A DNA stretch of 64,000 nucleotides from Rhodothermaceae bacterium. GTDB taxonomy: Bacteria; Bacteroidota; Rhodothermia; Rhodothermales; Bin80. The notes beneath the pieces were generated by a model that worked only from the letters and a program-made list of their open reading frames with translations, did not search any database and was not told the origin of the DNA. The DNA lies in contig VXLY01000111.1 in the NCBI GenBank assembly GCA_009841335.1, positions 1,737-65,736 on the forward strand, written 5' to 3'. The position numbers and the translations under genes are program-made. Below, in pieces: positions 5,964 to 21,453 of this stretch. Numbering within the stretch: the stretch's first letter is position 1; each line of letters opens with the position of its first letter.

Positions 5964-6815
5964 ATGCCGCAAATCGGTCCATATACGTTGCATACTGTCG
6001 AATGTGGCCGTTTCAGGTTGGATGGGGGTGCGATGTTTGGTATCATTCCGCGCGTATTGTGGGCAAGCAGAATGCCTCCTGATGACAGAAACAGGATTTC
6101 CATGTGCATGCGATCCCTACTCTTGGAAGGAGACGGACGTGTAATCCTGATTGATAACGGTGCAGGCAACAAGCACGATGCACGGTTCAAGGATATTTTT
6201 GCTCTTGAGGGATGTACTCTGGATGATTCTTTGAAGAAGGCCGGCTTTACTGCAGAAGATGTCACGGATGTAATTTTGACACATCTACACTTTGATCACG
6301 CAGGGGGGAGCACGACTTACGACGGAGGACGGGTTGTACCAAAATTCAAAAACGCAACCTACCATTTACAGCTGGGTCACCTAGAGAGTGCAAGAACCCC
6401 GAATGTCCGTGAACGAGCATCTTTTCTTCCGGATAATTTTGAACCGCTTGCTGCAACTGGACAGCTACTAACACATCAGGGTGAAGGGCAACTTTTTCCT
6501 GGAATTGATCTCGTGGTAGTTAATGGCCATACGACTGCTCAGCAATTGGTCAGGATCAGCGGCAAAGAAGGAATAGTTGTTTTTTGTGCAGATCTGCTGC
6601 CAACAGTTCATCATCTTCGTTCGCCATGGGTTATGGCATATGATGTTAGACCACTGACCACCGTGGCAGAGAAGGCACATTTTCTAGATAATGCCCTCGC
6701 TGAGCAGTGGCAGCTCTTTTTTGAACATGATCCTGAGGTAACGGTGGCAAGTTTGCAGGAAACAGAGAAGGGCATAATAACCAGTTCTCCCAGACGGCTT
6801 GAGGAACTGTTTTGA
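5964..6815 (+). CDS. MBL-fold metallo-hydrolase
   Basis: 283 aa with the HxHxDH motif (THLHFDHAGG) and downstream His/Asp ligands (VNGHT, FCADL). Confidence 0.85.
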   Translation: MPQIGPYTLHTVECGRFRLDGGAMFGIIPRVLWASRMPPDDRNRISMCMRSLLLEGDGRVILIDNGAGNKHDARFKDIFALEGCTLDDSLKKAGFTAEDVTDVILTHLHFDHAGGSTTYDGGRVVPKFKNATYHLQLGHLESARTPNVRERASFLPDNFEPLAATGQLLTHQGEGQLFPGIDLVVVNGHTTAQQLVRISGKEGIVVFCADLLPTVHHLRSPWVMAYDVRPLTTVAEKAHFLDNALAEQWQLFFEHDPEVTVASLQETEKGIITSSPRRLEELF

Positions 6816-6835
6816 GACCAGGATTCTTTGAAACA

Positions 6836-6851
6836 TCCGAAGTTTTTCGGA
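6836..6851 (+). terminator. Weak hairpin after the MBL gene (possible terminator)
   Basis: TCCGAA-gttt-TTCGGA, a perfect 6-bp stem, lies 21 nt after the stop. There is no U-tract, so support is weak. Confidence 0.25.
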
Positions 6852-6954
6852 GTAGACGCGATTCACTTTTCCCAGCGAAAATTCCCATTGCCCAAAGTTA
6901 CCAAGTGTATACGCAGGAACACCTTAGGCTGTAACTGCTCAATAACTTATTAGC

Positions 6955-9900
6955 GTGCAATCTTGGCAATTATCTGGACCAGTGAACCGGGTAAGGATTT
7001 TCGGAACGTTGTATTTGTCAGTACTGGCTGCTATTTGTGCACCGGCTGCTGCGCAAGATGCTACCCTTGAGCTCATAGATTCTACGCTTGGCCGCAGTGT
7101 CTATCAACTGAGTGCAGAATGGGGAGATGCTGAAGTGGATGTAGGTGGGCTCCTGGAGTCCTCGGTGGTCTTGGATCTTCCAGCCCTGGTACAGCCCAGT
7201 GTTCGCGTTTTGGAAGCAGAGTACGATGAGTACTCATTTGAGCCAGTCAAGGGCGTCGGTGAAGAGGCTGCCGTTGTCGTTGGTCTTGGACTATCGCGAA
7301 AGCGGCCGGCTGCCACATTAGTGGCACGTCTTGTAACCTATGATTCAACATCTGCAAAACTGCGGCGCTACAGGCACATGCGAATTGAGGTGATACATCC
7401 GGTTTATCAGCAGGTGCCCACCAGCTACGAGACCTCGGATAACCCACACCTCGATGTTAGTCGAAGTGTGCTCGCGGATGGGCAGTTTTTTAAGCTTGCA
7501 GTTTCAGAGACAGGGGTATATCGGATTGATCGCACTTTTCTTGAATCTTTACCAGGGCTGGATACGCCAGTTGGCAGTATAGATCCAGATCAAGTCAGGA
7601 TATTTGGTAATGGAGGGGCACCGGTCCCCGCCCTTAACAGTGCGCCCAGGATTGCGGATTTAGCAGAAAATCAGGTATTTGTGCAGGGGGGTGGGGACGG
7701 TAGTTTTGATGCCGCTGATGCGGTCTGGTTCTATGCCCAGGGTCCGAGTGGATGGCAAAGTAGGCAGCTAACAGGCTTCAGGGGCAGACCAATTCTAGAT
7801 CCGAGCGGAGAACCCGTACGCGAGTGGTCCCATTATGTGCATCCGTTTGATTCAACGAACTATTACTTTTTGAGCATTGGGAGTTCGACAAGCGAAACCT
7901 ATCTGCAGGAAGATTATCCTGATGCCGCAGACACAGTTCTGCTCTCCGAAATCACGGGACGCTACTTTGTAGATCTGGACGAGTACTTGTGGGGGCGGGA
8001 AGGGGGCCATTCCGGTCATACCTGGGTCAGTGCGCTTATACCTGGACCTGGGCCGGGACGTACGGTATTCGAAAACTTTCAGCTTCCCGGGCTGACCGGA
8101 GGTACATTGCATTATCAAATCCGAGCAGCTATTCAAAGCAATCCTGCCGCGACCCTGCATTACAGAGGGGATAACAGCACGTTGCACAGTGTTAACTACG
8201 GAGCCAGTTCGGGACTTTCTACATCTATAATTGCACGGTCGGGGATTGCGGATTTCACGCAAACGGTTACCGCTGGTCAGCAGATCAGCCTCACAGTTGA
8301 TCTGGATGACCAAGCCGGTGGCCCCCTGGCGGCTTTGGATTGGGTTCGGATATTTTATCCCAAAACACTCCAGGCAGATCAGCAACCCGTGAGATTTCAT
8401 ACACCATTAGCTGAAGCAGGGACGTTCACATTTGTGCTTCGCGGCTTTTCTTCCCCGCCATTTGTACTGGATATAACCCAACCTGGGGATTATCGCTGGC
8501 TGGGTCTTAGTTCGCGGGGGGGCGAGTATTGGGCACAGGTGACGGCCGCGTCAGCGGATGAGCCCCGGGAGTTGATCGCCTTCACGTCTAATCAAGTTCG
8601 GACTCTGGATGCCACCGAAGCATGTGGTCCTGAATGCAGGGTTACTCCGCAGAACCTCCATGGCATTCAGGCGTGGCCCGACTTTGTGATTATCACTCCC
8701 AATCAGTTTATTCAGCAGTCAAATGCGTTGGCCGATCGTCGTCGTGCAGAAGGACTAACGGTTGAAGTGGTTGATGTACAACAGATTTATAATGAGTTTT
8801 CGGGGGGACTGCAGGATGTGCGTGGCATCAGGGATTACCTGAAGTTTCTTTATGACCGCAGCCCAGATGAAGAACGCCTGTTGCGGTATGTGCTTCTTTT
8901 TGGTGACGGCCACTTTGACTACCGAAATCTTGATGCTTCCGCCACGTTCCCGAATCATATTCCTCCATTCGAGACAGAGGATTCCTGGGACCCCGAACGG
9001 TCCTACACATCAGACGATTACTACGGGCTGCTCGATGATAATGAAGGGTTATGGCCTTATATCCAGAAAACTTTCCAGGACCCATATGCCCACTTGAACG
9101 AGCGCGTAGATTTAGGGATTGGGCGCTTTACGGTACATACCGAAGAAGAAGCTCAATTGATGATTGATAAAATTGTGCACTATGAAAGCCCGAACACATA
9201 TGGTCAATGGCGAAACCGATACCTGTTTCTGGCAGATGATGGTCCAACGGGAATATCTGGCACACAAAATGACAAGGACCTTCATACACAAAATACCGAT
9301 GTGGTTGCAGTTGCAGTGGCGAAGCTTGCGCCAGATGTAAACCAGCGTAAAGTGTATGCACTTTCGTACACCAGAGAATTCCTCAACACCTGGCGCGTTC
9401 CGAAAGCGCGCCAAGATCTGCTATTAGCGATTGATGAGGGCGTTCTCGTTGTGAACTATAGTGGTCATGGAGGCGAGCGGTCGCTTGCGCAGGAAAATCT
9501 TTTTACTGTTGAGGACTCCAGATCCCTCCAGAATTATGATAGACTGCCGATATTCATTACCGCAACCTGTTCCTTCGGTCGATGGGATTTGGGAAATGAG
9601 CAGACCGGTGCAGAAGAGTTGCTTCTAAATCGAAATGGTGGGGCGATTGCCCTCCTGACAACGGTACGTCAAGTATACACTTCCGGGACTGCGACCACAC
9701 TTAATGTTGGACTGAATGTGGCCCTGAACGAAGAGCTCTTTAAACGGGAAGCCGATCAGTTGTTACCTCGGATTGGAGATGCGCTTCGTCGAACCAAGAA
9801 CAGACGTGTGGGCTACGAGGGTAACAACCGCAAATTCAATCTTCTGGGAGATCCTACATTGCGGCCTGGCTTACCCGCCAGTCGTGCCGTTGTTACGCAT

Positions 9901-10974
9901 ATAAACGACAATCAGATTTCCACGGCCACAGGGCAGATGCGTGCACTGGAACGGATTGAGCTGAAGGGGGAAATCCAACGGTCTGACGGTTCATTAGATA
10001 CTTCCTTTGATGGTGCGGCGTCGCTCACGGTTTTTGATGCGCTGAGGCACGTGCCAATTCCTCCAGAGATGTTTCGCCATATGCCGCAGCGTTACTATGA
10101 AGTTCGAGAAGATCTGATCTGGCGGGGCAGGACTCGCGTGACCGATGGACGCTTTGTGGCACGATTTGTCGTTCCAAAGGATATCTCGTATGCAAATCGG
10201 CCCGGAAGGGTTACCCTCTACGCACAAAGTGCGGCTGAGCATGTAAATGGGCATTCTGAGCGCTTTATTGTCGGCGGCACCTCGGACGATGCCACAAATG
10301 ATGTGGACGGCCCACAGATCGAACTTTATCTGGGAGATGAATCGTTCACCAGTGGCGGCTTGGCTCCCGTGCAACCGCAAGTATTCGCCCGCATATATGA
10401 TGAAAGCGGCATCAATACAGTGGGTGCAGGAGTTGGACACGAAATGTTACTCGTACTCGACGAAAATGAGGTGGAAGCAATCAACATTGGCAACCTCTAT
10501 GAAAGTGATGAGGATTCATTTCAACGGGGATCTGTTTCTTATTCTTTTGACGAGGCGCTGACGCCCGGTCCACACACACTTAGTCTTCGTGCTTGGGATG
10601 TGCTGAACAATTCCGGCGAAGCATCCTTAGATTTTCTTGTAACGGATACCGAAGAGTTAGTGATCAGAAATGTTTTCAACTATCCAAACCCTACGACCGG
10701 GGCAACCCGATTCGTTTTTGAGCACAACCAAATACCCGGTACGCCAGTTAAGGTACATGTGCGGGTTTATACTTTAGCGGGACGTCCCGTGCGGACTTTG
10801 GAATCAGAAGAGTTGTTATCTGCAGGACCAATGCAAATTTCCTGGGATGGACTGGACGACGATTATGCAAGACTCGCCCCTGGCGTGTACTTGTATAGGC
10901 TTCGGGCTGAAACAGCAGGTGACGAAGTGCAGCACGTTGCCGAGATTATAGAAAAACTGGCCGTTGTTCGTTAA
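6955..10974 (+). CDS. porU: T9SS sortase PorU (C25 gingipain-like peptidase family)
   Basis: 1339 aa with a GTG start and signal peptide. Gingipain-type catalytic dyad contexts VNYSGHGG (His codon 9466..9468) and FITATCSFG (Cys codon 9568..9570). C-terminal T9SS CTD (FNYPNPTTG...GVYLYRLRAE). Immediately upstream of porV, as in known T9SS loci. Confidence 0.88.
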   Translation: MQSWQLSGPVNRVRIFGTLYLSVLAAICAPAAAQDATLELIDSTLGRSVYQLSAEWGDAEVDVGGLLESSVVLDLPALVQPSVRVLEAEYDEYSFEPVKGVGEEAAVVVGLGLSRKRPAATLVARLVTYDSTSAKLRRYRHMRIEVIHPVYQQVPTSYETSDNPHLDVSRSVLADGQFFKLAVSETGVYRIDRTFLESLPGLDTPVGSIDPDQVRIFGNGGAPVPALNSAPRIADLAENQVFVQGGGDGSFDAADAVWFYAQGPSGWQSRQLTGFRGRPILDPSGEPVREWSHYVHPFDSTNYYFLSIGSSTSETYLQEDYPDAADTVLLSEITGRYFVDLDEYLWGREGGHSGHTWVSALIPGPGPGRTVFENFQLPGLTGGTLHYQIRAAIQSNPAATLHYRGDNSTLHSVNYGASSGLSTSIIARSGIADFTQTVTAGQQISLTVDLDDQAGGPLAALDWVRIFYPKTLQADQQPVRFHTPLAEAGTFTFVLRGFSSPPFVLDITQPGDYRWLGLSSRGGEYWAQVTAASADEPRELIAFTSNQVRTLDATEACGPECRVTPQNLHGIQAWPDFVIITPNQFIQQSNALADRRRAEGLTVEVVDVQQIYNEFSGGLQDVRGIRDYLKFLYDRSPDEERLLRYVLLFGDGHFDYRNLDASATFPNHIPPFETEDSWDPERSYTSDDYYGLLDDNEGLWPYIQKTFQDPYAHLNERVDLGIGRFTVHTEEEAQLMIDKIVHYESPNTYGQWRNRYLFLADDGPTGISGTQNDKDLHTQNTDVVAVAVAKLAPDVNQRKVYALSYTREFLNTWRVPKARQDLLLAIDEGVLVVNYSGHGGERSLAQENLFTVEDSRSLQNYDRLPIFITATCSFGRWDLGNEQTGAEELLLNRNGGAIALLTTVRQVYTSGTATTLNVGLNVALNEELFKREADQLLPRIGDALRRTKNRRVGYEGNNRKFNLLGDPTLRPGLPASRAVVTHINDNQISTATGQMRALERIELKGEIQRSDGSLDTSFDGAASLTVFDALRHVPIPPEMFRHMPQRYYEVREDLIWRGRTRVTDGRFVARFVVPKDISYANRPGRVTLYAQSAAEHVNGHSERFIVGGTSDDATNDVDGPQIELYLGDESFTSGGLAPVQPQVFARIYDESGINTVGAGVGHEMLLVLDENEVEAINIGNLYESDEDSFQRGSVSYSFDEALTPGPHTLSLRAWDVLNNSGEASLDFLVTDTEELVIRNVFNYPNPTTGATRFVFEHNQIPGTPVKVHVRVYTLAGRPVRTLESEELLSAGPMQISWDGLDDDYARLAPGVYLYRLRAETAGDEVQHVAEIIEKLAVVR

Positions 10975-11020
10975 AGGCCACAAACATGTGTACAACCTAA
11001 CCCTTGCAAAACCAGATAGT

Positions 11021-12208
11021 ATGAAGAGTCAGATTTTCAAACACATCACCATTTCGTCGCTTTTGATCTTCATGATCATTGGTGGCATTGTCAGGGATGC
11101 ATCGGCCCAGATTGGCGCATCCGCTGTTGTATTTCTCATGATTGAACCCGACAGCAGGGCGGCAGGTATGGGGAATGCAGGTGTAGCCATTGCCGACAAT
11201 GCAAATGCCTTGTTTTGGAATCCTGCAGGGTTAGCCGATCAGGTTGGAACTGAGGTTGCACTGACGCACAGTAATTGGTTGCCAGAGCTGAGCAGTGATC
11301 TATTTTTTGAGTACCTGGTCGCCAAGCATCATATCAATAATTGGGGCACAATCGGGGCGCATGTAACATTTTTGAACCTTGGTGAGCATGAACACCGTGA
11401 TGCACTGAATCAAGAACTAGGTACTTTTCGATCATACGACCTGTCTGTCGGAGTCTCGTATGGGTTCAAGGTTTCTGAGCATTTTTCACTGGGTACCGGT
11501 GTGCGTTGGATCCGGTCTAACCTTGCCAGTGTCAATGTAGGTGCGCAGCAGTCTCAGCCGGGTGTATCGGTCGGTGTGGACTTGGCAGCTATGCTCAAGG
11601 CGCCCCAATTTTCACTTGGGCCTATTGCCACGCAGTACAATATTGGGGTTAATCTCACCAACATGGGTCCCAAGATCCAGTACTCTGACAGTGAGCAGGC
11701 TGACCCGATCCCCACCTTACTTCGTGTAGGTCATGCAATTACATTTGAATTTGACGAATACAACAAGATCACTCTGGCCAACGATGCTTCAAAAATTCTC
11801 GTGCGTCAGCGGGTTGAGGAGGTATGTATTGACGTTAATGATCCTGAGACCTGTGCTCCGCAATACTCCACAGATCCGTTCTATCGCGCGATCTTCACTT
11901 CCTGGACCCCCATTGAAGTTCTGAGTTCAGCGGTCAACGATGATGAACAGGAGTTCACGAACCTGTCAGTCATTGACCAGCTCTTGATTTCCGTTGGTTT
12001 CGAGTACTGGTACAATAATCTGTTCGCAGCGCGTGGAGGATATTTCTATGAGAATCCCTACAATGGTGACCGGAAATTCCTAACCTTTGGAGCAGGAATC
12101 CGCTACAATATCGTGGGGGTTGATTTTTCGTATGTATATGCCTTGGAGGAAAACCATCCTTTGGCCAATACAATGCGTTTTTCGCTACTCCTCAACTTTG
12201 CACGCTAA
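11021..12208 (+). CDS. porV: T9SS outer-membrane shuttle protein PorV (PorV/PorQ family)
   Basis: The ORF opens at 10964. The ATG at 11021 gives a signal peptide. N-terminal signature DSRAAGMGNAGVAIADNANALFWNPAGLA. Size is that of a beta-barrel protein (about 395 aa). Adjacent to porU. Confidence 0.88.
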   Translation: MKSQIFKHITISSLLIFMIIGGIVRDASAQIGASAVVFLMIEPDSRAAGMGNAGVAIADNANALFWNPAGLADQVGTEVALTHSNWLPELSSDLFFEYLVAKHHINNWGTIGAHVTFLNLGEHEHRDALNQELGTFRSYDLSVGVSYGFKVSEHFSLGTGVRWIRSNLASVNVGAQQSQPGVSVGVDLAAMLKAPQFSLGPIATQYNIGVNLTNMGPKIQYSDSEQADPIPTLLRVGHAITFEFDEYNKITLANDASKILVRQRVEEVCIDVNDPETCAPQYSTDPFYRAIFTSWTPIEVLSSAVNDDEQEFTNLSVIDQLLISVGFEYWYNNLFAARGGYFYENPYNGDRKFLTFGAGIRYNIVGVDFSYVYALEENHPLANTMRFSLLLNFAR

Positions 12209-12230
12209 CCCGGATCGAGGTTGCAGTACA

Positions 12231-15125
12231 ATGAGGCAGCTGACTGTCACGGCAGCGGCCTGCCTATTGCTGCTGACCGGAGCAAATGCTCAAACGGTTA
12301 AGCCAGCTGCACCATACTACGACTTGGTCGCGCTCCGGGTAGAGTTTGTGCCGGATACGTCCAGTTTTACTACTGGTGACGGAACGTTCTCGGGATTGAG
12401 ACTTCCCGTTGAACCAAAGGTCGATCCGCTCCCTCATGATGCGGCCTATTTCGAGGCCCATCTGGCTTTTCTGGAACACTATATCCTCACAGCCAGTGCT
12501 GGCAGAACCAGGATTGTGACGCATCTCATCCCTGAGGTTGTGCGGCTGGATAGTCCAATGGCAACCTATAGTCCGGTCGGATTAGACTCAGACAGTAAGT
12601 CGGAGCGATCGAAATTGGCAAACCTGGTCCGTGATGCCTGGACAAAGGCAGATGTGGAGAGTACATTTGATCCAATGCGATTCTCGAACAAGGGGAATAT
12701 TGTGTTCGTCCTGTTCCATGCGGGGGTAGGACGTGATATTGAGCTGGTCGGCACGACGCTGGACAAGACACCCCAGGACCTCCCTTCACTCTTCATGGGG
12801 ACCAATACGTTGGCAGACCTTGGTATTAGCGGACTCAAATTCAAAGGGTTGCCGGTAGACCATTCGCTTATCATTCCCCGCACGGAAACCCGCCCGGGCG
12901 TAAATCCCTTTACGGATGAGCCCTACCTGCTGGAACTGTCAATTAATGGATTGTTGGCAGCAAGCTTCATTAGTTATCTAGGGGTTCCCGACCTGTTCAA
13001 TACCGATACCGGGGAGTCAGTGATTGGTCCGTTTGGTGTGATGGATCCATTGGGTATTTTTGCGTATCGCGGACTGTTTCCACCACTACCCAGTGCCTGG
13101 ACCCGCGCAGCACTCGGGTGGGCGATCCCGGAAGACATTCATGATCCCGGTACATACGATCTGGCAGCCGGAGAAATTGCCAGGATAGAGATATCAGAGG
13201 CTGAGTATTTTCTGTTGGAAAACCGTGTACGCACTCCCGACGATACAGGGCTCACGCTACACATATTCAACGAGGGGAAAATCTCAACTCAGCGGTTCCC
13301 TGCGACCAGCGATGATTTTGACCGATTCAATGTGGGGGCATTTCAGGGTGGTGTGGTTACACGGGCAAGCTCATACGATTTTGCGCTGCCAGGCCGTGAT
13401 GCCGATAATCAGCAATACAATGGAGGGATCCTCATCTGGCACATTGATGAGCGTCAGTTTTCCCGCGCGGTCAACAATGATCCAGACGCGTTGGCTGTTG
13501 ATATTGAGGAAGCCGACGGGGCACAGGATATTGGCTTTGACGGTAACATCGGCTCTCCGTTTGATTTTTATTTCAGCGACAATCCTTCAAGTGTAGCCTT
13601 GCCCTCCGGGCTCACCATCAGTCTCTATGATAATCGGTTTGGCCCCGACACGACACCAGACAGCAGGACAAACGAAGGCGGGAACAGCTTCTTAACGTTC
13701 GACAATTTTTCGGCGTCCGGCCCGAACATGTCTTTTTCGGTCCAGAAGGATGCGGGCGAACATGTGACCGATGCAGGAATGGTTGAACTGGGATCAGAAA
13801 CTACTCAAGAAGGCAGCGTTGGGATAGCAGCCGGTCGAAGAGTAGTGTTTACCGGTACGGAGCTCATTGTACCAGGGGCTGACCGGGTGAATGCTCTGGC
13901 ACGGCCGGCCTACAGTGCACAGGGCATGGCCGTGGTCGACGATCAGGATGGCGGCATTGCATTCAGAGAATATGAATTAATCGGGGAGCAACTGATGGCA
14001 AGACGGTCGGTAACTCTTCCCGCAGAACTCCCGATGGCAGGACCAGTGGTGTATCATGACAATGCTCATTATGCCCACTTCACCGGACCAGACCGATCAC
14101 AAGTGTTTCGGATAGCTTCTGGTGTAGATAGATATGATATTGATGACGGCGGGCTGGGGGTGATTGCGACTGATGAAGGAGTTTACTTCGTTGGACAGTC
14201 ACAAGCCGGGCTGATTGGCGAAGCTTCAACATGGACGTACACGCTGGACAGTGATGCAGGCTACCCGGTAATGGGACGGGATCGTACCGGGCTATGGGGA
14301 GCAATTCCGCTTTCCACGGCCCTAGTTGTACTGGAACCCGATGGTGAAACCAGACGGATTTCGGCCTCAGCCTACGTCGGAGGCGCAGTTTTTTCATCAT
14401 TGCTCGCTATTGCAGATCTAGATCAGAACGGTGTTCTTGATTTGATTACAACTGCAGGTAATAGGGTCGTTGCATTCTCTCAGGGAGGTGCATTGCTTCC
14501 ACCTTTTCCCATAGAGATCGGAGCTCCTGCCACCAGCGCTCCACTGATCTATCAATCGGACGATGCGATCATCATTGTTGTATCTGCCGCTGATGGGAAT
14601 ATTTATGCATTCGACCTCGACCAGAAGGGGCGAGTCATTCCCGGGTTCCCCTTATCGGCTGGGCGTGCAATCAAAGCTACTTCACTCATTTTGAGTGATA
14701 CACTGAGCGTAGTTACCGAATCAGGTATTCTGAGAAACTACAAGCTGAATAATATCGGTCGGGCGCTCTGGGCACAGCAGCACGGTACCGGACAAAATGC
14801 GAGCTTTGTGGCATTGCCTACAAAACAAGCTGAGACTGCGCCGCTGTTGAACGCAGCGGAGACTTATAATTGGCCTAATCCAATCCGGGATGGGCACACG
14901 TTTTTTCGGTGTCTGACAAGTGAAGCTTCGCAAATATCCGTCACGGTGGTGGACGCGGCGGGGTCTTTGGTGGGCTCGTTAGATTTTGCCACTTCGGCAG
15001 GCGTCCCACATGAAGTTCCCTGGAAAACCAGTGCCGCGAGCGGCATATACTTCGCGCGGGTAGAAGCCACCTCTGTTTCTGGACGGACGGACTCACATCT
15101 GATTAAACTCGCGATCATTCGATGA
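12231..15125 (+). CDS. T9SS cargo: M6 (immune inhibitor A)-like domain with degenerate zinc site, beta-propeller-like region and T9SS CTD
   Basis: The ATG at 12231 gives the signal peptide MRQLTVTAAACLLLLTGANAQ. LAASFISYLGVPDLF aligns with the M6 motif HEFGHDLGLPDLY. GGILIWHIDE is present. FG-GAP/BamB-like repeats occur (DLDQNGVLDLITT, GNIYAFDLDQKGRVIPGFP). The C-terminus YNWPNPIRDG...GIYFARVEA is a T9SS CTD. Confidence 0.75.
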   Translation: MRQLTVTAAACLLLLTGANAQTVKPAAPYYDLVALRVEFVPDTSSFTTGDGTFSGLRLPVEPKVDPLPHDAAYFEAHLAFLEHYILTASAGRTRIVTHLIPEVVRLDSPMATYSPVGLDSDSKSERSKLANLVRDAWTKADVESTFDPMRFSNKGNIVFVLFHAGVGRDIELVGTTLDKTPQDLPSLFMGTNTLADLGISGLKFKGLPVDHSLIIPRTETRPGVNPFTDEPYLLELSINGLLAASFISYLGVPDLFNTDTGESVIGPFGVMDPLGIFAYRGLFPPLPSAWTRAALGWAIPEDIHDPGTYDLAAGEIARIEISEAEYFLLENRVRTPDDTGLTLHIFNEGKISTQRFPATSDDFDRFNVGAFQGGVVTRASSYDFALPGRDADNQQYNGGILIWHIDERQFSRAVNNDPDALAVDIEEADGAQDIGFDGNIGSPFDFYFSDNPSSVALPSGLTISLYDNRFGPDTTPDSRTNEGGNSFLTFDNFSASGPNMSFSVQKDAGEHVTDAGMVELGSETTQEGSVGIAAGRRVVFTGTELIVPGADRVNALARPAYSAQGMAVVDDQDGGIAFREYELIGEQLMARRSVTLPAELPMAGPVVYHDNAHYAHFTGPDRSQVFRIASGVDRYDIDDGGLGVIATDEGVYFVGQSQAGLIGEASTWTYTLDSDAGYPVMGRDRTGLWGAIPLSTALVVLEPDGETRRISASAYVGGAVFSSLLAIADLDQNGVLDLITTAGNRVVAFSQGGALLPPFPIEIGAPATSAPLIYQSDDAIIIVVSAADGNIYAFDLDQKGRVIPGFPLSAGRAIKATSLILSDTLSVVTESGILRNYKLNNIGRALWAQQHGTGQNASFVALPTKQAETAPLLNAAETYNWPNPIRDGHTFFRCLTSEASQISVTVVDAAGSLVGSLDFATSAGVPHEVPWKTSAASGIYFARVEATSVSGRTDSHLIKLAIIR

Positions 15126-18100
15126 AGCGAGTCCTCTCTGTTCTTGCTGCGGTGATGTTGGTTGCCGGTACAAATGCTCAGGTTTCTCCGTCTCTTCTAG
15201 ATTTTAGCCGCCCAGCGCTTGATTGGTACCAAATAGAGACGGATCACTTTGTCATACTGTTCCACATGGATGAATCGGGGCAGGGAGCAAGTCGGTCGGC
15301 TCAGGTGGCAGCGCGCGTAGCCGAAGAAGTCTACGGACCCATAACAAGCCTGTATGAGCATGAACCAGACGGCAAGGTGCATATAATCCTCAAAGACTAC
15401 GAGGATTACTCAAACGGCGCAGCGTACTTTTTTGACAATAAGATTGAGATCTGGGCACCCGCGCTAAATTCTCCCTTGCGAGGGGCACATGACTGGATGC
15501 GCAATGTGATCACACACGAGTTCATCCATATCGTTCAGGTTCAGGCAGCAATGAAGTCTCCGCGAAGATGGCCCTTGGGGTATCTCCAGGTTCTGGATTA
15601 CGAAGATGTACGCCGTCCCGATGTCTTGTATGGATATCCCAATGTGATTGTCAGTTATCCGGTTATTGGTTTGAACAACCCGGCTTGGTTTGCGGAAGGG
15701 ACTGCACAGTATCAACATGATCACTTACACTACGACCGTTGGGATTCGCATAGGGACATGTTGCTGCGAACCCGTGTTCTGGAGGGAAAGGCGCTCAGTC
15801 TGACTGAGCTTGGCAGCTTCTATTCCAAGAGCAGTTTGATGCGTGAGGGGGTGTATAATCATGGGTTCGCATTCACGCTGTATTTGGCACGTGTGTATGG
15901 AGTGGAGGTGTTGGCCCAGATTAGTGACTACCTGCGCAGTTGGCGTATATGGCGCGTTGAGGAAGCCATTGAGCAAGCAACCGGTGTACCGGGGCAGGAA
16001 GTTTATGAGTCGTGGCTTCAGGAACTCAATCGCTCCTATGTACAGGCCGTATCTCCCATTAAGGAGTCTCTCGCGGAAGGAACATTGGTTGAGCCAGAAG
16101 GCTTCGCCAATTATTTCCCGCGGTTCTCACCGGATGGATTGAAGTTGGCCTATATATCCAATAAGGGTGAACATTTTGGTCGCACCAGCCTGTACGTACA
16201 AGACTTAAGCAGCGGTTCGGTGGTTGCCCACGATCTGGGAGAGGCCTTCGGCGACTACATCTGTTCACTAGGTCATCGTATAAAGTCCAATGTGACCGGC
16301 GCTGCTGCCTGGCGCCCGGATGGTCAGGCACTCGCATATGCCCGGCAGCGTGTAACCTCAGAGGGTTTTCTATACACAGATCTTCATTTGATTGATTTAG
16401 ATACGGAAAAATCCTCTCCACTGACGCGTGATGCACGTGCCTCCCAACCTGCGTGGGATTCCACAGGGACAAGAATTATGTACGTCACCTCCGATGATGG
16501 AAGCAGTAATCTGCAATTGCTGAACCTAGAAACAGGCGAGGGCAGACCAATCACGCGGTTTGCAAACGGAACCCAGGTAACCTCTCCGGTATGGCACGGT
16601 GAATGGATTTATTTTGCGCGACTCGATCCCGGTGCTCATGGTAACGATTTGTGGCGGGTCAAGGCAGACGGATCAGAACTGGCCCCCGTTCTGCAGACTT
16701 CGGCGGATGAGCGATCACCGGCGATAGCCAATGGCATGCTGTACTATGCTTCTGATGAGAGTGGGATCTACAATATCTATCGGTTTAAGCCGGACGGTTC
16801 GGAGCAACTGACTCAGGTCATCGGCGGAGCTTTCATGCCGGATGTCAGTGAAGATGGGAGGATCGCTTATGCCACATATAGATGGGATGGATACAAAATC
16901 GCCATTCTAGAGTATCCAGCAACAATTGAATCCACAATCCAATATGCGCCACCGGAATTCATCACAAAAACTGCCGCGCCTACTGCGTCGGAGAATGACG
17001 GGGATATAAGGGCTATTGATCCAGAAGTGCTTTCAAGTACATTGGACAGGGAACCAGCTTTGGGGACGGATTCTTTACAGGTATCGCGCTATGGTGCCAA
17101 CTTTACAAGTTTCAGCTTCTCACCGGTTGTCCGACTGGATCAATACGTAGAGCGTCGGCTCGAGGGGCGTGTTCGTGGCAGGGCAGAAACCTTTTGGAGG
17201 AACCTGAAATTCGGCACTTACGTCTCTTCCCGGGAGATGCTGGAGGGCATGAGCCTGTTCGGAGGATTGCTCGTAGGTCCAGGATCACACCAGGACGGCC
17301 AAATTATTGCTCCGGCCAATATACTGGCACTTGAACGGGATGTATTTCTTCAATTCAATTACTCCCGGGGTTTTGGGTTCTTGCCTGGACGTTGGTCGCC
17401 GCAGATAGCAATCGAGCTGTATAATATTCAGCGTCAGGTAGAGAACGGGCTGTCTATTGATGAGCACCCTTGTACTGCATGCTTACCTGAGTCCACCAAT
17501 GCCGACCTTACTTATGGTCTCTGGGAGGGAAATATATATTTGCGCAGCAAGATTAACCGCAGCACAGTACTTGAAGCTGGATACCGGTACAGCCCGTATC
17601 GTGTTACAACAAACCGTTTCTATTCAAAAGAGCTTACAGATTGGATACCCAGTACCTCGTCACGCTACTTTATTGGCCGCAGCTATATGGCGGGCGCCTA
17701 CTTTGAGGCACGGCGTTCTCATCGTGAGTCGGACATAATGCGCACAGGCTTGAGCATTGCGGCTACGTATGAACGCGAAACCGGTGAATTGCTGAGGCAA
17801 TTTGATGTGGAAGAAGGGCAATTGGTACCTGTCTATGATACCGACGTACTCCACCGGATGCGCGTTAATTTAGAGGGAGGAATCCGGCTACCTGGCCAAG
17901 TTCGTGGCACTTCACATGGCCTGAGTATTCGGGTGCAAGCCTCAACGCTATTCGGCAAGAATACAGATTCGTTTTATTTTGACTATGTCGGTGGCCTGTC
18001 CGGCGCACGCGGCTATCCGTTTTATGCACTGGGTGGGACAGAAACACTATGGGTGCAGGCTGCATGGACCTTGCCATTGATTCCTGATATTCGGCGTCAG

Positions 18101-18382
18101 ATCGGACCGGTTTATTTGGATAAGGTCTTCATGCGCCTTTATGCTGATGGGGCAAGGGTCCAACCGGCAAGCCAGGCGATCCGCAAAGATATGGGGGCTG
18201 AACTTCGCCTGATGATGGGAAGCTACTATTTACTACCAACGGCATTGTTTGTCAGTGCGACTTATGGCATGGATGCATTTGAGGTTGAGCTGGATGATGT
18301 GTTCGTTACTTCGCAGCCGAGCGTAGATTATGGTAAGGAGCTTCAATGGCACTTTGGGTTACTTTTTGGGTTTGACCTGTAG
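15122..18382 (+). CDS. Zincin (Peptidase_MA-like HExxH) / PD40 TolB-like propeller / Omp85-like beta-barrel fusion protein
   Basis: The start overlaps the upstream stop (ATGA). Signal peptide MKRVLSVLAAVMLVAGTNAQ. HEFIH at 15515..15529 followed by FAEGTAQY. PD40-like repeats (FSPDGLKLAYISN, WRPDGQALAYAR, DSTGTRIMYVTSDDGSSNLQLLNLETGE). C-terminal VGGLSGARGYPFYALGGTE...LYADGARV...WHFGLLFGFDL resembles the Omp85 loop-6 RGF/Y region and terminal strands. Confidence 0.75.
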   Translation: MKRVLSVLAAVMLVAGTNAQVSPSLLDFSRPALDWYQIETDHFVILFHMDESGQGASRSAQVAARVAEEVYGPITSLYEHEPDGKVHIILKDYEDYSNGAAYFFDNKIEIWAPALNSPLRGAHDWMRNVITHEFIHIVQVQAAMKSPRRWPLGYLQVLDYEDVRRPDVLYGYPNVIVSYPVIGLNNPAWFAEGTAQYQHDHLHYDRWDSHRDMLLRTRVLEGKALSLTELGSFYSKSSLMREGVYNHGFAFTLYLARVYGVEVLAQISDYLRSWRIWRVEEAIEQATGVPGQEVYESWLQELNRSYVQAVSPIKESLAEGTLVEPEGFANYFPRFSPDGLKLAYISNKGEHFGRTSLYVQDLSSGSVVAHDLGEAFGDYICSLGHRIKSNVTGAAAWRPDGQALAYARQRVTSEGFLYTDLHLIDLDTEKSSPLTRDARASQPAWDSTGTRIMYVTSDDGSSNLQLLNLETGEGRPITRFANGTQVTSPVWHGEWIYFARLDPGAHGNDLWRVKADGSELAPVLQTSADERSPAIANGMLYYASDESGIYNIYRFKPDGSEQLTQVIGGAFMPDVSEDGRIAYATYRWDGYKIAILEYPATIESTIQYAPPEFITKTAAPTASENDGDIRAIDPEVLSSTLDREPALGTDSLQVSRYGANFTSFSFSPVVRLDQYVERRLEGRVRGRAETFWRNLKFGTYVSSREMLEGMSLFGGLLVGPGSHQDGQIIAPANILALERDVFLQFNYSRGFGFLPGRWSPQIAIELYNIQRQVENGLSIDEHPCTACLPESTNADLTYGLWEGNIYLRSKINRSTVLEAGYRYSPYRVTTNRFYSKELTDWIPSTSSRYFIGRSYMAGAYFEARRSHRESDIMRTGLSIAATYERETGELLRQFDVEEGQLVPVYDTDVLHRMRVNLEGGIRLPGQVRGTSHGLSIRVQASTLFGKNTDSFYFDYVGGLSGARGYPFYALGGTETLWVQAAWTLPLIPDIRRQIGPVYLDKVFMRLYADGARVQPASQAIRKDMGAELRLMMGSYYLLPTALFVSATYGMDAFEVELDDVFVTSQPSVDYGKELQWHFGLLFGFDL

Positions 18383-18400
18383 CGATATCCTTGGATTTCC

Positions 18401-19039
18401 ATGACGCCTGTTGTGATCTTTTGCTTACTCTTTATTGCAATCAGTATTGGATTGCTTTATCTGGTCCTGCGAAAGAACCCATACCCGGTTCCGCGCGGAG
18501 GTATACAGTGGATGGTCACCATCATGTGTACGTTGCTCGTTTGCCTTTCTGGATTCGTGATTGCGCTTGAATGGAGTTTTTCCGAGCATTCTGATATCAC
18601 CTCCACCCCAGAGCAGGTAGAGCCCTTTGTATTTCGATTGGTTTCCAATCAGGAAGCGGTGAACATAAGCGATTTTAATGGGAGTGTGGTGCTCTTGAAT
18701 TTCTGGGCCACGTGGTGTCAGCCCTGCATTACTGAACTACCCGAGCTTGATGCACTGCAGGAAGCTTATGGGGATATAGGCCTGGTTGTTGTAACTCTGT
18801 CAGACGAAGACTTGGAAGAGCTGCAGTTATATGATGATTTGCTGCCCGAAAAAACGGTATCTGGTTATGTAGCTCCTGAGGAATTGCCGGAATATTTCAG
18901 ACACGAACTTCAATCCGGTCGGCCGATCACGTATGTGATTGATGGGAGAGGAATGATTCGGGAACGCCTTCTGGGAGCGGGGACATTTGAATATTTCGAG
19001 GGTCTTGTCACACCGTGGCTGGCTGAACTCCAATCGTAG
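18401..19039 (+). CDS. TlpA-family membrane-anchored thiol:disulfide oxidoreductase
   Basis: Two N-terminal TM segments. Thioredoxin-fold motif NFWATWCQPC. Confidence 0.85.
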   Translation: MTPVVIFCLLFIAISIGLLYLVLRKNPYPVPRGGIQWMVTIMCTLLVCLSGFVIALEWSFSEHSDITSTPEQVEPFVFRLVSNQEAVNISDFNGSVVLLNFWATWCQPCITELPELDALQEAYGDIGLVVVTLSDEDLEELQLYDDLLPEKTVSGYVAPEELPEYFRHELQSGRPITYVIDGRGMIRERLLGAGTFEYFEGLVTPWLAELQS

Positions 19040-19042
19040 CGC

Positions 19043-19993
19043 ATGCGGTGTACTGCACTCGTCCTTGGCCTTCTCGTCTTCATTCCGAATGTTCAGGCGC
19101 AGCCTACTGCCGATAGCCTGGAAGCATTGTTTTCAAGCTCCCGTCGCAGCACTCCACTTGCCTTTGGCATGTCTGCGGTGGTTCCTGGTCTAGGCCAAGC
19201 TTATAATCGTCATTGGATCAAGGGGGCAGTTGCGGTAGCAGGAGAGGCCGCGGTGCTCTTGCTATATACTTCTTGGCGCCGACAGGGTGTGGATGGACGG
19301 GACGCCTATCAAATGGATGCTCACATGTACTGGAGTCCGATTAAGTATGCATACTGGCTTAATGATTATGCTCAGTACTTGAACCGACTGCCGGATGGGC
19401 GTCCAGTAACGGCTCCGCCGGTGAATATTTCACAGGCGCTTTTGAGCATTGACCTGACACAGCCAGACGCGTGGTCAGATTCGGAACGGCTGGCGGTGCG
19501 AAAACTTTTCCAGGAGATTCAATTGCTTGAACGTGACAGCTATCACGGAGATACAGGAGCAGTTTTTTCGCACGTTCTTCCATTTTTTGGAGAACAGCAG
19601 TACTATGAACTTGTGGGCAAGTACTTTCAGTTCGCTCCGGGTTGGGAAGATTACGTTGCTATTGTCAGAGATGGCCGTGTAACCTGGATTGACGAGAATG
19701 GAGATTTTATTCAATCTATTGAGCCGGAAGCGACCGGCCCGGGCGGGACAAAACCAAATGTATCCGCCAGGTTCTATCAATACGCAGAGGATCATGCTGA
19801 CGCAAATACATACTTGCGTCGAGCTTCCCGAATTACGACTCTGCTCATTGTAAATCACGTACTCGCTGCTGTGGATGCGGCAATATTTGCGCGGCTGCAC
19901 AACCGTCGTATGCAACTTAGTCTTGGGCTGGTGAAAGATATTCAGGGACGAACTCTCGTGGCTCCGCAAGTGAGATTCCACCTGAATAAATGA
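19043..19993 (+). CDS. DUF5683-like secreted/membrane protein
   Basis: Signal peptide MRCTALVLGLLVFIPNVQAQ. VVPGLGQAYNRHWIKGA resembles the DUF5683 signature recalled from Bacteroidota proteins. Confidence 0.6.
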   Translation: MRCTALVLGLLVFIPNVQAQPTADSLEALFSSSRRSTPLAFGMSAVVPGLGQAYNRHWIKGAVAVAGEAAVLLLYTSWRRQGVDGRDAYQMDAHMYWSPIKYAYWLNDYAQYLNRLPDGRPVTAPPVNISQALLSIDLTQPDAWSDSERLAVRKLFQEIQLLERDSYHGDTGAVFSHVLPFFGEQQYYELVGKYFQFAPGWEDYVAIVRDGRVTWIDENGDFIQSIEPEATGPGGTKPNVSARFYQYAEDHADANTYLRRASRITTLLIVNHVLAAVDAAIFARLHNRRMQLSLGLVKDIQGRTLVAPQVRFHLNK

Positions 19994-20097
19994 ATGCCTT
20001 GATCGTTAAATTGGCACTTCATGCGTTTTGAAGCTCTTCGCGGCATCCCAATCTCTAGTCGTATATTGAAACTCCAACTCAAAAAATTATCGCAATC

Positions 20098-21453
20098 ATG
20101 AATTGGTATAAGCAGTTGCATGTATGGATCATCCTAGGCCTTGTATTCGGATTAGGTTATGGAATTCTTTCTGCAGCAATGGGGTGGGGGGCGTTCACCC
20201 AGGCATGGATAAGTCCCTTTGGCGACATCTTTCTGAACGCATTGTTCATGATTGCAGTGCCGCTCGTACTGGGGTCAATCATAACCGGTGTGGCCTCGCT
20301 TTCAGATACGCGCAAACTGGCCCGGATAGGTGGTAAAACAATCCTGATCTATGTCAGCACAACGATTGCTGCTCTGATCATTGGGCTGCTTTTGGTCAAT
20401 ATCATCCGACCGGGAGATACGGTTCCGGAAGAGGTACGTATGGATCTGCAGGAAGGGTACAGTGATATGGCGGAGGAGCGCCAAGAGAGTGCTGCTTCAG
20501 CTCAAGAACGCGGCCCATTGCAGGCGTTTGTAGACATGGTGCCCCGCAATATCGCAGCAGCTGCCTCTAATAACCGAAACATGCTGCAAGTGGTGATGAT
20601 CGCGGTACTGTTTGGGATCGCACTTCTACTTGTTCCAAAGGAGAAAGCCCAGCCTATGTTGGGTTTCTTCGAGAGTCTGACGGCGGTGGTTATCAAGATT
20701 GTGGAGATCATAATGTGGATTGCTCCTCTGGGAGTGTTCGCGCTCCTTGCGGATACGGTCAGTTTGATTTCGGGGGACAATCTGAGCGAGTTGTGGAGTT
20801 TGCTGGGGGCGCTTGGGTTTTACATGCTTGTCGTGCTGGCCGGACTTCTTGTGCATGTCGCCGTAACGTATGGGTCCATCCTGAAATTCCTGACACCGAT
20901 GTCCCTCAAGAAATTCATTATGGGGATAGCGCCTGCGCAGCTTGTTGCATTCAGCACGTCATCGAGCGGTGCAACGCTTCCGGTCACAATGGATCGCGTC
21001 GAGAACAACCTTGGCGTCAGCGAGGAGGTTTCTTCATTTGTACTTCCGCTTGGTGCCACGATCAATATGGATGGTACTGCGCTCTATCAGGCGGTAGCAG
21101 CGGTGTTCATTGCGCAGACACTTGGAATTGCACTTGGCTTTATGGACCAATTGGAGATCATACTTCTGGCTCTACTTGCTTCAATTGGCACTGCAGCGGT
21201 CCCCAGCGCGGGTATCATCATGTTGATCATCATATTGCAGTCAGTGGGTGTTCCTGCAGCAGGTATAGCATTGATCCTTGGTGTTGATCGCATTCTGGAT
21301 ATGTGCCGGACGGTATGCAATATAACGGGAGATGCAACCGTCGCTACCTTGGTTGCTTCCTCGGAGGGGCAGCTTGGTGAGGTCAGCGAAACGCCGGCTC
21401 CCATTGGATTTGTCGCTACTCCGGATGCATCTTCGGAGGAGCACCCTGAATAA
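20098..21453 (+). CDS. Dicarboxylate/amino acid:cation symporter (DAACS, GltP-like)
   Basis: 451 aa, polytopic. DAACS motifs STSSSGATLP, PLGATINMDGTALYQ and CNITGDA. Confidence 0.9.
   Translation: MNWYKQLHVWIILGLVFGLGYGILSAAMGWGAFTQAWISPFGDIFLNALFMIAVPLVLGSIITGVASLSDTRKLARIGGKTILIYVSTTIAALIIGLLLVNIIRPGDTVPEEVRMDLQEGYSDMAEERQESAASAQERGPLQAFVDMVPRNIAAAASNNRNMLQVVMIAVLFGIALLLVPKEKAQPMLGFFESLTAVVIKIVEIIMWIAPLGVFALLADTVSLISGDNLSELWSLLGALGFYMLVVLAGLLVHVAVTYGSILKFLTPMSLKKFIMGIAPAQLVAFSTSSSGATLPVTMDRVENNLGVSEEVSSFVLPLGATINMDGTALYQAVAAVFIAQTLGIALGFMDQLEIILLALLASIGTAAVPSAGIIMLIIILQSVGVPAAGIALILGVDRILDMCRTVCNITGDATVATLVASSEGQLGEVSETPAPIGFVATPDASSEEHPE

Follow-up and report, generated by a model that had tools for sequence, protein, structure and literature searches.

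We analyzed a 64,000-nucleotide (nt) stretch of DNA from a Rhodothermaceae bacterium (GenBank assembly GCA_009841335.1, contig VXLY01000111.1, positions 1,737 to 65,736; hereafter, the window), and in particular the gene at positions 15122..18382 of its plus strand, which encodes a protein of 1086 amino acids (aa) that we refer to as X. The gene stands in a cluster of six genes that begins with two type IX secretion system (T9SS) genes, porU and porV, and ends with a gene for a DUF5683 protein, and X itself consists, in this order, of a signal peptide, a gluzincin domain, a six-bladed TolB-type β-propeller, a linker of 57 aa and a 16-strand β-barrel. A prediction made earlier from the sequence alone (hereafter, the original prediction) had proposed a four-part protein comprising a signal peptide, a zincin, a propeller and an Omp85-type barrel. 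This architecture was borne out by profile searches and by an AlphaFold model, and the motifs that had been quoted for it, namely HEFIH, FAEGTAQY, VGGLSGARGYPFYALGG and the C-terminal GLLFGFDL, were all found in place. More than 1,800 homologues of X were found, and the architecture therefore lies far beyond what chance could produce. The gene and its features are as follows.

15122..18382, plus strand: gene of X, the 1086-aa zincin-propeller-Omp85 protein; intact open reading frame
15122..15181, plus strand: signal peptide MKRVLSVLAAVMLVAGTNA with the glutamine that follows it; cleavage site predicted from the sequence; Q20 kept in at least 90% of homologues
15182..16066, plus strand: gluzincin (Peptidase_MA_2-like) domain, aa 21-315; best-conserved domain of X; PF13485 above its cut-off in homologues
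15515..15529, plus strand: HEFIH zinc-binding/catalytic motif, aa 132-136, with H132, E133 and H136; invariant
15689..15712, plus strand: FAEGTAQY helix, aa 190-197, with E192 as the presumed third zinc ligand; E192 invariant
16067..16912, plus strand: six-bladed TolB/PD40-type β-propeller, aa 316-597; PD40 E = 2.5e-11; blade count from AlphaFold strands
16913..17083, plus strand: variable acidic linker, aa 598-654 (57 aa); low-confidence single helix with a predicted local distance difference test (pLDDT) score of about 42-55
17084..18379, plus strand: 16-strand Omp85-type β-barrel, aa 655-1086; Foldseek, and hhalign E = 2.2e-48
17987..18037, plus strand: loop 6 between strands 11 and 12, VGGLSGARGYPFYALGG, aa 956-972, with RGY at 18008..18016; AlphaFold strands and alignment

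Two alignments were used in the analysis, one of 44 close homologues with 52-90% identity (A1) and one of 51 distant homologues with a mean column identity of 29% (A2). The C-terminal part of X (aa 598-1086) had no Pfam or NCBIfam match at E ≤ 1, PF01103 included, and no PDB match by phmmer or by hmmsearch with the family profiles of A1 and A2, the only PDB matches being to the propeller; PF01103 was likewise absent from nine distant homologues at E ≤ 0.01. The full-length AlphaFold model, which was built on 44 homologues, reached a pLDDT of 77 and a predicted template modelling score of 0.78, and the matches listed by a Foldseek search with it were all propeller proteins (TolB, S9 and tricorn), with TolB at E = 7e-10. 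Barrel matches emerged only when a separate model of the C-terminal region (aa 598-1086, pLDDT 70) was compared with the PDB by Foldseek. All of its top 50 matches were chains of the Omp85 superfamily, with E values from 1e-6 to 3e-4, and the matched proteins included BamA of F. johnsoniae, D. radiodurans, B. thetaiotaomicron, E. coli and P. gingivalis as well as FhaC, TamA and Toc75. For example, BamA of F. johnsoniae (9n2e) was matched at E = 1e-6, and BamA of D. radiodurans (8xnb) with a TM-score of 0.59. Both the full-length and the C-terminal model contain sixteen long strands across aa 665-1081. BamA-type barrels carry loop 6 between strands 11 and 12, with a (V/I)RG(F/Y) motif; the longest loop of X (aa 945-973), which is flanked by the strands 933-944 and 974-987, contains ARGY at aa 962-965. 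Y965 is invariant, and the motif reads RGY in Rhodothermales, RSY in Balneolales, KAY in Ignavibacteria and IRGY in the homologue P0231.

Sequence homology was followed through intermediates. An exhaustive phmmer search with the barrel of X returned 157 cluster representatives, of which nearly all full-length proteins (about 980-1190 aa) have the barrel C-terminally, the remaining matches being shorter sequences or fragments. The barrel of X matched that of P0231, which carries the canonical IRGY motif, at E = 5.7e-10, and close relatives of P0231 pass the gathering score of PF01103 (26.8-34.2 versus 24 bits) and bear the NCBI name "BamA/TamA family". When the family of X was compared with the family of P0231 by hhalign, the two were aligned over 450 columns with a probability of 100% at the E value listed above. 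The barrel of X accordingly belongs to the Omp85 superfamily by three independent lines, namely the fold search, transitive homology and profile-profile comparison. This is what the original prediction had read from the C-terminal motifs; no profile matches the region directly, yet fold, transitive homology and strand count agree.

The zincin domain is the part of X that has changed least. Identity among the distant homologues was 46% in the zincin, 33% in the propeller, 27% in the barrel and 14% in the linker, and the zincin accounts for 22 of the 29 invariant columns in A2. The residues H132, E133, H136 and E192 are invariant in the 44 close homologues, in the 51 distant homologues and in 80 genomic loci (described below), and the active site that had been predicted to be intact is thus intact in all homologues examined. 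As a candidate for the third zinc ligand, E161 was considered and rejected, as it varies to S, Q or D; because E161 varies while E192 is invariant, E192 is the likely ligand. In the AlphaFold model, aa 35-314 form a thermolysin-like arrangement of a β sub-domain, the HExxH helix (aa 125-143), the Glu helix (aa 188-197) and a helical bundle. M1 peptidases carry a WLNEGFA motif, which the WFAEGTAQY helix of X resembles. X scored 16.6 bits against Peptidase_MA_2 (PF13485), below the cut-off of 32.4, and two of its homologues exceeded the cut-off (P0142 with 33.3 and P0211 with 33.8 bits), the matches in the other seven homologues scanned being weak or below it; PF13485 is also present in the precomputed annotation of many of the 120 homologues listed. 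Peptidase_M9 was weakly matched in one homologue (P0258), and hmmsearch with the family profiles of A1 and A2 gave no PDB match to the zincin. Judging from the alignments, the zinc-binding and catalytic residues are under strict purifying selection, and the zincin is predicted to be active, as far as the sequence tells.

Between the zincin and the barrel, the AlphaFold model contains six four-stranded blades (aa 321-596), and the family profile matched TolB chains in the PDB at E = 6e-20. The TolB equivalog TIGR02800 was matched with 62 bits (E = 4.8e-17) against a cut-off of 343, the alignment covering the propeller part only; on this evidence X does not appear to be a full-length TolB of the Tol-Pal system with its N-terminal domain. 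The precomputed Pfam matches of homologues of X include Tricorn_N and Tricorn_2nd. The linker that follows is the least conserved part of X, with 27% identity and two invariant columns among the close homologues and 14% identity and none among the distant ones, and its length varies among homologues. No POTRA domain was matched by Pfam in X at E ≤ 1, in agreement with the original prediction, which had recognised none; a POTRA domain hidden in the linker was also considered and was rejected, the linker being too short, unconserved and of low model confidence.

X holds three cysteines, namely C381 (16262..16264) and the pair of C784-T-A-C787 (17471..17482). C381 lies in a low-confidence loop of the propeller, adjoining the nearly invariant H385, and is kept only in Rhodothermales, the lineage that also has a TlpA-like thioredoxin gene directly after X; at two loci (L019 and L023) the cysteine is present and the thioredoxin is absent. 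The CxxC pair lies in predicted barrel loop 3 and is kept in Rhodothermales and Balneolales and absent in Ignavibacteria. Such cysteines could serve redox control or a cysteine-switch-like latency.

The other genes of the cluster are listed below, where M6i is our short name for the product, matching NF052323, of the gene directly upstream of X.

6955..10974, plus strand: porU, T9SS sortase (Peptidase_C25), opening the cluster; NF033707 969 bits, PF01364 E = 1e-102
10964..12208, plus strand: porV, T9SS outer-membrane shuttle; NF033710 304 bits, PF19572 E = 2e-41
12231..15125, plus strand: M6i, T9SS-dependent M6-like inactivated metalloprotease; NF052323 695 bits (cut-off 600)
18401..19039, plus strand: membrane-anchored TlpA/ResA-like thioredoxin (WCQPC); in this position in Rhodothermales only
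19043..19993, plus strand: gene of a DUF5683 protein; PF18935 E = 2e-9

From porU to the DUF5683 gene, the spacing of the six genes ranges from overlap to at most 22 nt, and housekeeping genes lie beyond. The ATG of X overlaps the stop codon of M6i (ATGA at 15122..15125), which confirms that X is coupled, as had been predicted, to a T9SS cargo gene behind porU and porV. M6i has a weak match to a T9SS type-A C-terminal sorting domain and, in keeping with the "inactivated" of its family name, contains no HExxH. Its likely start is the ATG at 12231, which gives a signal peptide ending in ANA-Q, the mechanically assigned open reading frame beginning at TTG 12087. A scan of 6700..20300 for sigma-70 promoters and terminators returned fewer sites than in shuffled sequence and was uninformative on the limits of the operon. 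To our knowledge, no Omp85-type protein is among the known components of the T9SS.

Several further observations concern these neighbours. The mechanically assigned starts of porV (TTG 10964) and M6i (TTG 12087) result in apparent overlaps of 11 and 122 nt with the preceding genes, and internal ATGs with signal peptides behind them (about 11021 for porV and 12231 for M6i) are the more plausible starts. PorV was weakly matched to the Toluene_X/FadL family in the profile scan. The C-terminal half of M6i contains repeated D-x-D-x-x-G-type motifs before the sorting domain, which are suggestive of FG-GAP-like propeller repeats, and the layout of domain, propeller and sorting domain loosely recalls that of PorZ. 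In the DUF5683 protein, the N-terminus is signal-like, the region of PGLGQAYN is moderately hydrophobic, and a single C-terminal helix (aa about 264-285) is strongly so. A glutamine stands right after the predicted signal-peptide cleavage in three of the proteins, namely X (TNA-Q, 15179..15181), M6i (ANA-Q, 12288..12290) and the DUF5683 protein (VQA-Q, 19100..19102), and these predicted mature ends fit the "Q-rule" of pyroglutamate N-termini in Bacteroidetes. About 4 kb upstream of porU, the gene of an 871-aa leucine-rich-repeat protein (46..2661) encodes a further T9SS cargo, with a type-A sorting domain (TIGR04183, 31 bits).

We further scanned one genome per GTDB species, which returned at least 512 relatives of X, and took the best 80 loci (35-97% identity), which belong to Rhodothermales, Balneolales, Ignavibacteria and some metagenome-assembled genomes labelled Chitinophagales. 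Neighbours were counted by tblastn with those of the window at the loci having enough flank. PorU was present at 54 of 62 loci, PorV at 66 of 68, M6i at 77 of 80 and DUF5683 downstream at 71 of 73, and the thioredoxin was found next to X at 24 of 73 loci, all in Rhodothermales. The stop codon of M6i and the start codon of X overlap by 4 nt at 22 loci and by 1 nt at 7. The order porU-porV-M6i-X-(tlpA)-DUF5683 is therefore kept across Rhodothermales, Balneolales and Ignavibacteria; in other words, the synteny with porU and porV extends beyond the genome for which it was proposed. At the Balneolaceae/Rhodohalobacter loci L047, L050, L057, L062, L066 and L075, PorV, M6i, X and DUF5683 are present, with no PorU match upstream of PorV in about 10 kb of flank.

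The distant members are less uniform in this respect. P0142 has the complete order of porU, porV, cargo gene and X; P0211 and P0269 have a large overlapping gene upstream and DUF5683 downstream; P0162 has DUF5683 and lacks porU and porV; and P0231 has neither as a neighbour. Because DUF5683 stays with distant members that lack porU and porV, X and DUF5683 form the core pair, and the porU-porV-M6i linkage marks a large clade. At the loci L082, L083, L084 and L085, the DUF5683 gene follows X even where porU and porV are missing, and is thus its tightest partner. The surroundings of P0162 (locus L084, 435..19410) contain genes for a SurA/PpiD-like chaperone, an M1 peptidase and a patatin-Omp85 protein of the PlpD type, which gives them a flavour of outer-membrane biogenesis.

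Heinz and Lithgow (PMC4104836) divided the Omp85/TpsB superfamily into subfamilies in 2014, one of which, termed "WD40-like", has a TolB-like propeller where POTRA domains would otherwise stand and was described as reminiscent of a BamA-BamB fusion. For about 100 members, their supplementary Phyre2 table gives a BamA/TamA barrel and TolB, each with about 100% confidence, and a "best aminopeptidase hit" (M1 peptidases or collagenase G) with about 99% confidence. These members include four proteins of Rhodothermus marinus, several of Salinibacter ruber, and others from Ignavibacterium, Melioribacter, Cytophaga, Gemmatimonas, Anaeromyxobacter and Sorangium; the supplement also covers Myxococcota and Proteobacteria, and lists several WD40-like paralogues per genome. 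An Omp85 subfamily with "WD40 and peptidase domains" is also mentioned in PMC11358297, and the WD40-like subfamily was called "not well characterized" in 2024 (PMC11116518). X has the same three parts as these proteins, an M1/M9-like zincin, a TolB-like propeller and a barrel without POTRA, and comes from an overlapping set of lineages, and it thus fits the WD40-like subfamily, in which we place it by shared architecture and taxa rather than by direct alignment with the listed members (such as D0MEQ5 and Q2RZZ9). The main text of PMC4104836, however, treats the propeller only, the peptidase matches being confined to the supplement, and does not mention the T9SS. The original prediction knew of no characterised example, and this holds in that no member of the subfamily has been characterised; the architecture itself, however, was catalogued and named in 2014, and what is new is the operon context. 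Our literature search found no report on the gene context of X, no link of an Omp85, propeller or peptidase protein of this kind to the T9SS, nothing relevant on T9SS gene clusters in Rhodothermales, Ignavibacteria or Balneolales, and, for DUF5683, one unrelated paper and nothing on the family itself. In the Fibrobacter paper, BamA was the only Omp85-type protein mentioned.

X can also be compared with better-known systems. With BamA, TamA and FhaC, its best structural matches, it shares the 16-strand barrel and the R-G-Y of loop 6 between strands 11 and 12; in contrast to these, X has no POTRA domain, no direct PF01103 match and no known partner lipoproteins, and its periplasmic part would be an enzyme and a propeller. 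In PlpD, a patatin-Omp85 protein, the enzyme domain was experimentally located in the periplasm, and the authors argued that it is unfavourable for a domain to be exported in folded form through such a barrel (PMC11116518). Like X, PlpD has an N-terminal enzyme domain on an Omp85 barrel, so that the Omp85 scaffold is reused as an anchor, whereas PlpD is a patatin lipase with one POTRA domain and forms a dimer, and X combines a zincin and a propeller without POTRA. BepA is described in PMC13655028 as a periplasmic M48 zinc metalloprotease that works at BAM in outer-membrane protein quality control. It offers a functional parallel to a protease kept at an Omp85 barrel; it is, however, a soluble protein of its own, with an M48 fold and a TPR domain, and we claim no homology to X. 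Tricorn and the S9 oligopeptidases likewise have a PD40/tricorn-type propeller beside a peptidase domain, but are cytosolic or soluble serine peptidases, whereas X is a gluzincin on an outer-membrane barrel. The propeller of tricorn and S9 enzymes gates substrate access, usually admitting unfolded chains or peptides. Finally, the PorQ-PorZ and PorV-PorU complexes resemble X and M6i in that the gene of an outer-membrane barrel stands with that of a T9SS cargo-type surface protein; M6i contains an M6-like domain, propeller-like repeats and a sorting domain. The barrels of PorQ and PorV are FadL-like and have 14 strands, in contrast to the 16-strand Omp85 barrel of X.

On balance, we favor the interpretation, as a fairly probable one, that X is a periplasm-facing, outer-membrane-tethered peptidase that works with the T9SS sorting module. 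As in BamA, strands 11 and 12 enclose loop 6, and the N-terminus of strand 1 would therefore be periplasmic, with about 575 aa of zincin and propeller on the periplasmic face; we infer this placement from the strand register rather than from model coordinates, and it matches the experimentally determined location of the enzyme domain of PlpD. The barrel would tether the peptidase at the outer membrane beside PorU and PorV, and the propeller would probably let only unfolded chains or peptides reach the active site, by analogy with tricorn and S9 enzymes. X might then act on polypeptides related to the T9SS, processing or removing, for instance, cargo that is stalled or mis-targeted, propeptides or remnants of sorting domains, and the DUF5683 protein may act together with it. 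The gene context points to a role in T9SS insertion, processing or quality control, as originally suggested; of that suggestion, the link to the T9SS stands as a conserved operon in a large clade and does not extend to the family as a whole, which is not confined to T9SS contexts (P0231 and P0162 lack porU and porV). A more specific and tentative proposal, which is possible and rather doubtful, is that T9SS sorting or attachment involves an accessory module, so far unrecognised, that is made up of X, M6i and the DUF5683 protein and is ancestral to Rhodothermota, Balneolota and Ignavibacteriota, in which the barrel would either hold an active zinc peptidase at PorU and PorV for cargo or sorting domains, or dock M6i as PorQ docks PorZ.

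The main rival of this interpretation, with a low likelihood that we nevertheless take seriously, is that X is a general envelope housekeeping peptidase that, jointly with DUF5683, takes part in the turnover of proteins or peptides of the periplasm or outer membrane, the adjacency to porU and porV reflecting co-expression only. The persistence of the X and DUF5683 pair without porU and porV in P0162 and the absence of both neighbours from P0231 would suit a general role, as would the several WD40-like paralogues per genome and their occurrence in Myxococcota and Proteobacteria (PMC4104836). However, the porU-porV-M6i linkage is kept down to about 30-35% identity in three lineages of class or phylum level, and start/stop overlap with the T9SS cargo gene is frequent, which exceeds what would be expected of incidental adjacency. 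Two further explanations are less likely than this one. That the barrel is the working part of X is improbable; X would then be a dedicated Omp85 insertase or translocase that serves outer-membrane components of the T9SS or, in the manner of TpsB and TpsA, M6i, with the propeller as a BamB-like scaffold and the zincin as a BepA-like quality-control module. Such a role would agree with the retained Omp85 fold and loop-6 motif, with the translational coupling of X to M6i, with the idea of a BamA-BamB fusion (PMC4104836) and with BepA as a zinc protease at BAM (PMC13655028). X lacks POTRA, however, and the barrel is its least conserved folded domain while the zincin is the most conserved; moreover, the Arg and Gly of loop 6 vary (KAY and RSY). 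In characterised Omp85 proteins that assemble or translocate others, POTRA domains bind substrates or partners. M6i has a T9SS sorting domain and a T9SS-dependent name, and thus has an export route of its own, which also counts against an insertase. A TpsA/TpsB-like pairing of M6i with X was rejected, M6i being T9SS-dependent and X being without POTRA.

We regard as very unlikely a type V-like route by which the zincin and propeller would pass through the barrel, or beside it, to the cell surface and act there next to PorU on cargo or cleaved sorting domains. In the T9SS, PorU and the cleaved sorting domains are at the surface, and a flexible linker of 57 aa precedes the barrel, both of which would accommodate surface display; but a folded region of about 575 aa would need to cross the membrane, and PlpD, the only tested enzyme-Omp85 fusion, keeps its enzyme periplasmic, the export of folded domains having been argued to be unfavourable (PMC11116518). 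That the C-terminal region might be something other than an Omp85 barrel, or the zincin a relic in decay, is extremely improbable and was refuted by our results. Such a view could draw on the lack of a direct Pfam, NCBIfam or PDB sequence match to aa 598-1086 and on the 16.6 bits of X against Peptidase_MA_2, but the fold search, the transitive Pfam membership and the hhalign comparison support the barrel, and the catalytic residues are invariant in a zincin that is the best-conserved domain.

Several points also weigh against the interpretation of X as a tethered peptidase of the T9SS. The barrel model is of moderate confidence (pLDDT 70), and the Foldseek matches, with TM-scores of 0.25-0.59 and root-mean-square deviations of 8-17 Å, therefore indicate a fold class and no close match. 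As the 80 loci were those with the highest scores among at least 512 relatives, they are biased towards orthologues, and the neighbour fractions hold for the orthologous clade rather than for the family at large. PorU works on the cell surface, and its products are not obviously within reach of a periplasmic protease. Relatives of X stand away from porU and porV in P0231 and P0162. Anaeromyxobacter and Sorangium are not known to have a T9SS. The family occurs in both of these genera (PMC4104836); since it is thus found outside porUV and T9SS contexts, its ancestral function was not T9SS-specific. Finally, no member of the WD40-like subfamily has been characterised experimentally, and we infer both the function and the topology of X.

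The clade described here gives an orphan Omp85 subfamily a functional lead, as X is nearly always part of the porU-porV operon in three deep lineages. For the study of type IX secretion, X is a candidate for a further component in lineages beyond the well-studied Bacteroidia. Should the zincin indeed act on T9SS substrates from the periplasmic side, this would be a proteolytic step that is new to current models of the secretion pathway.

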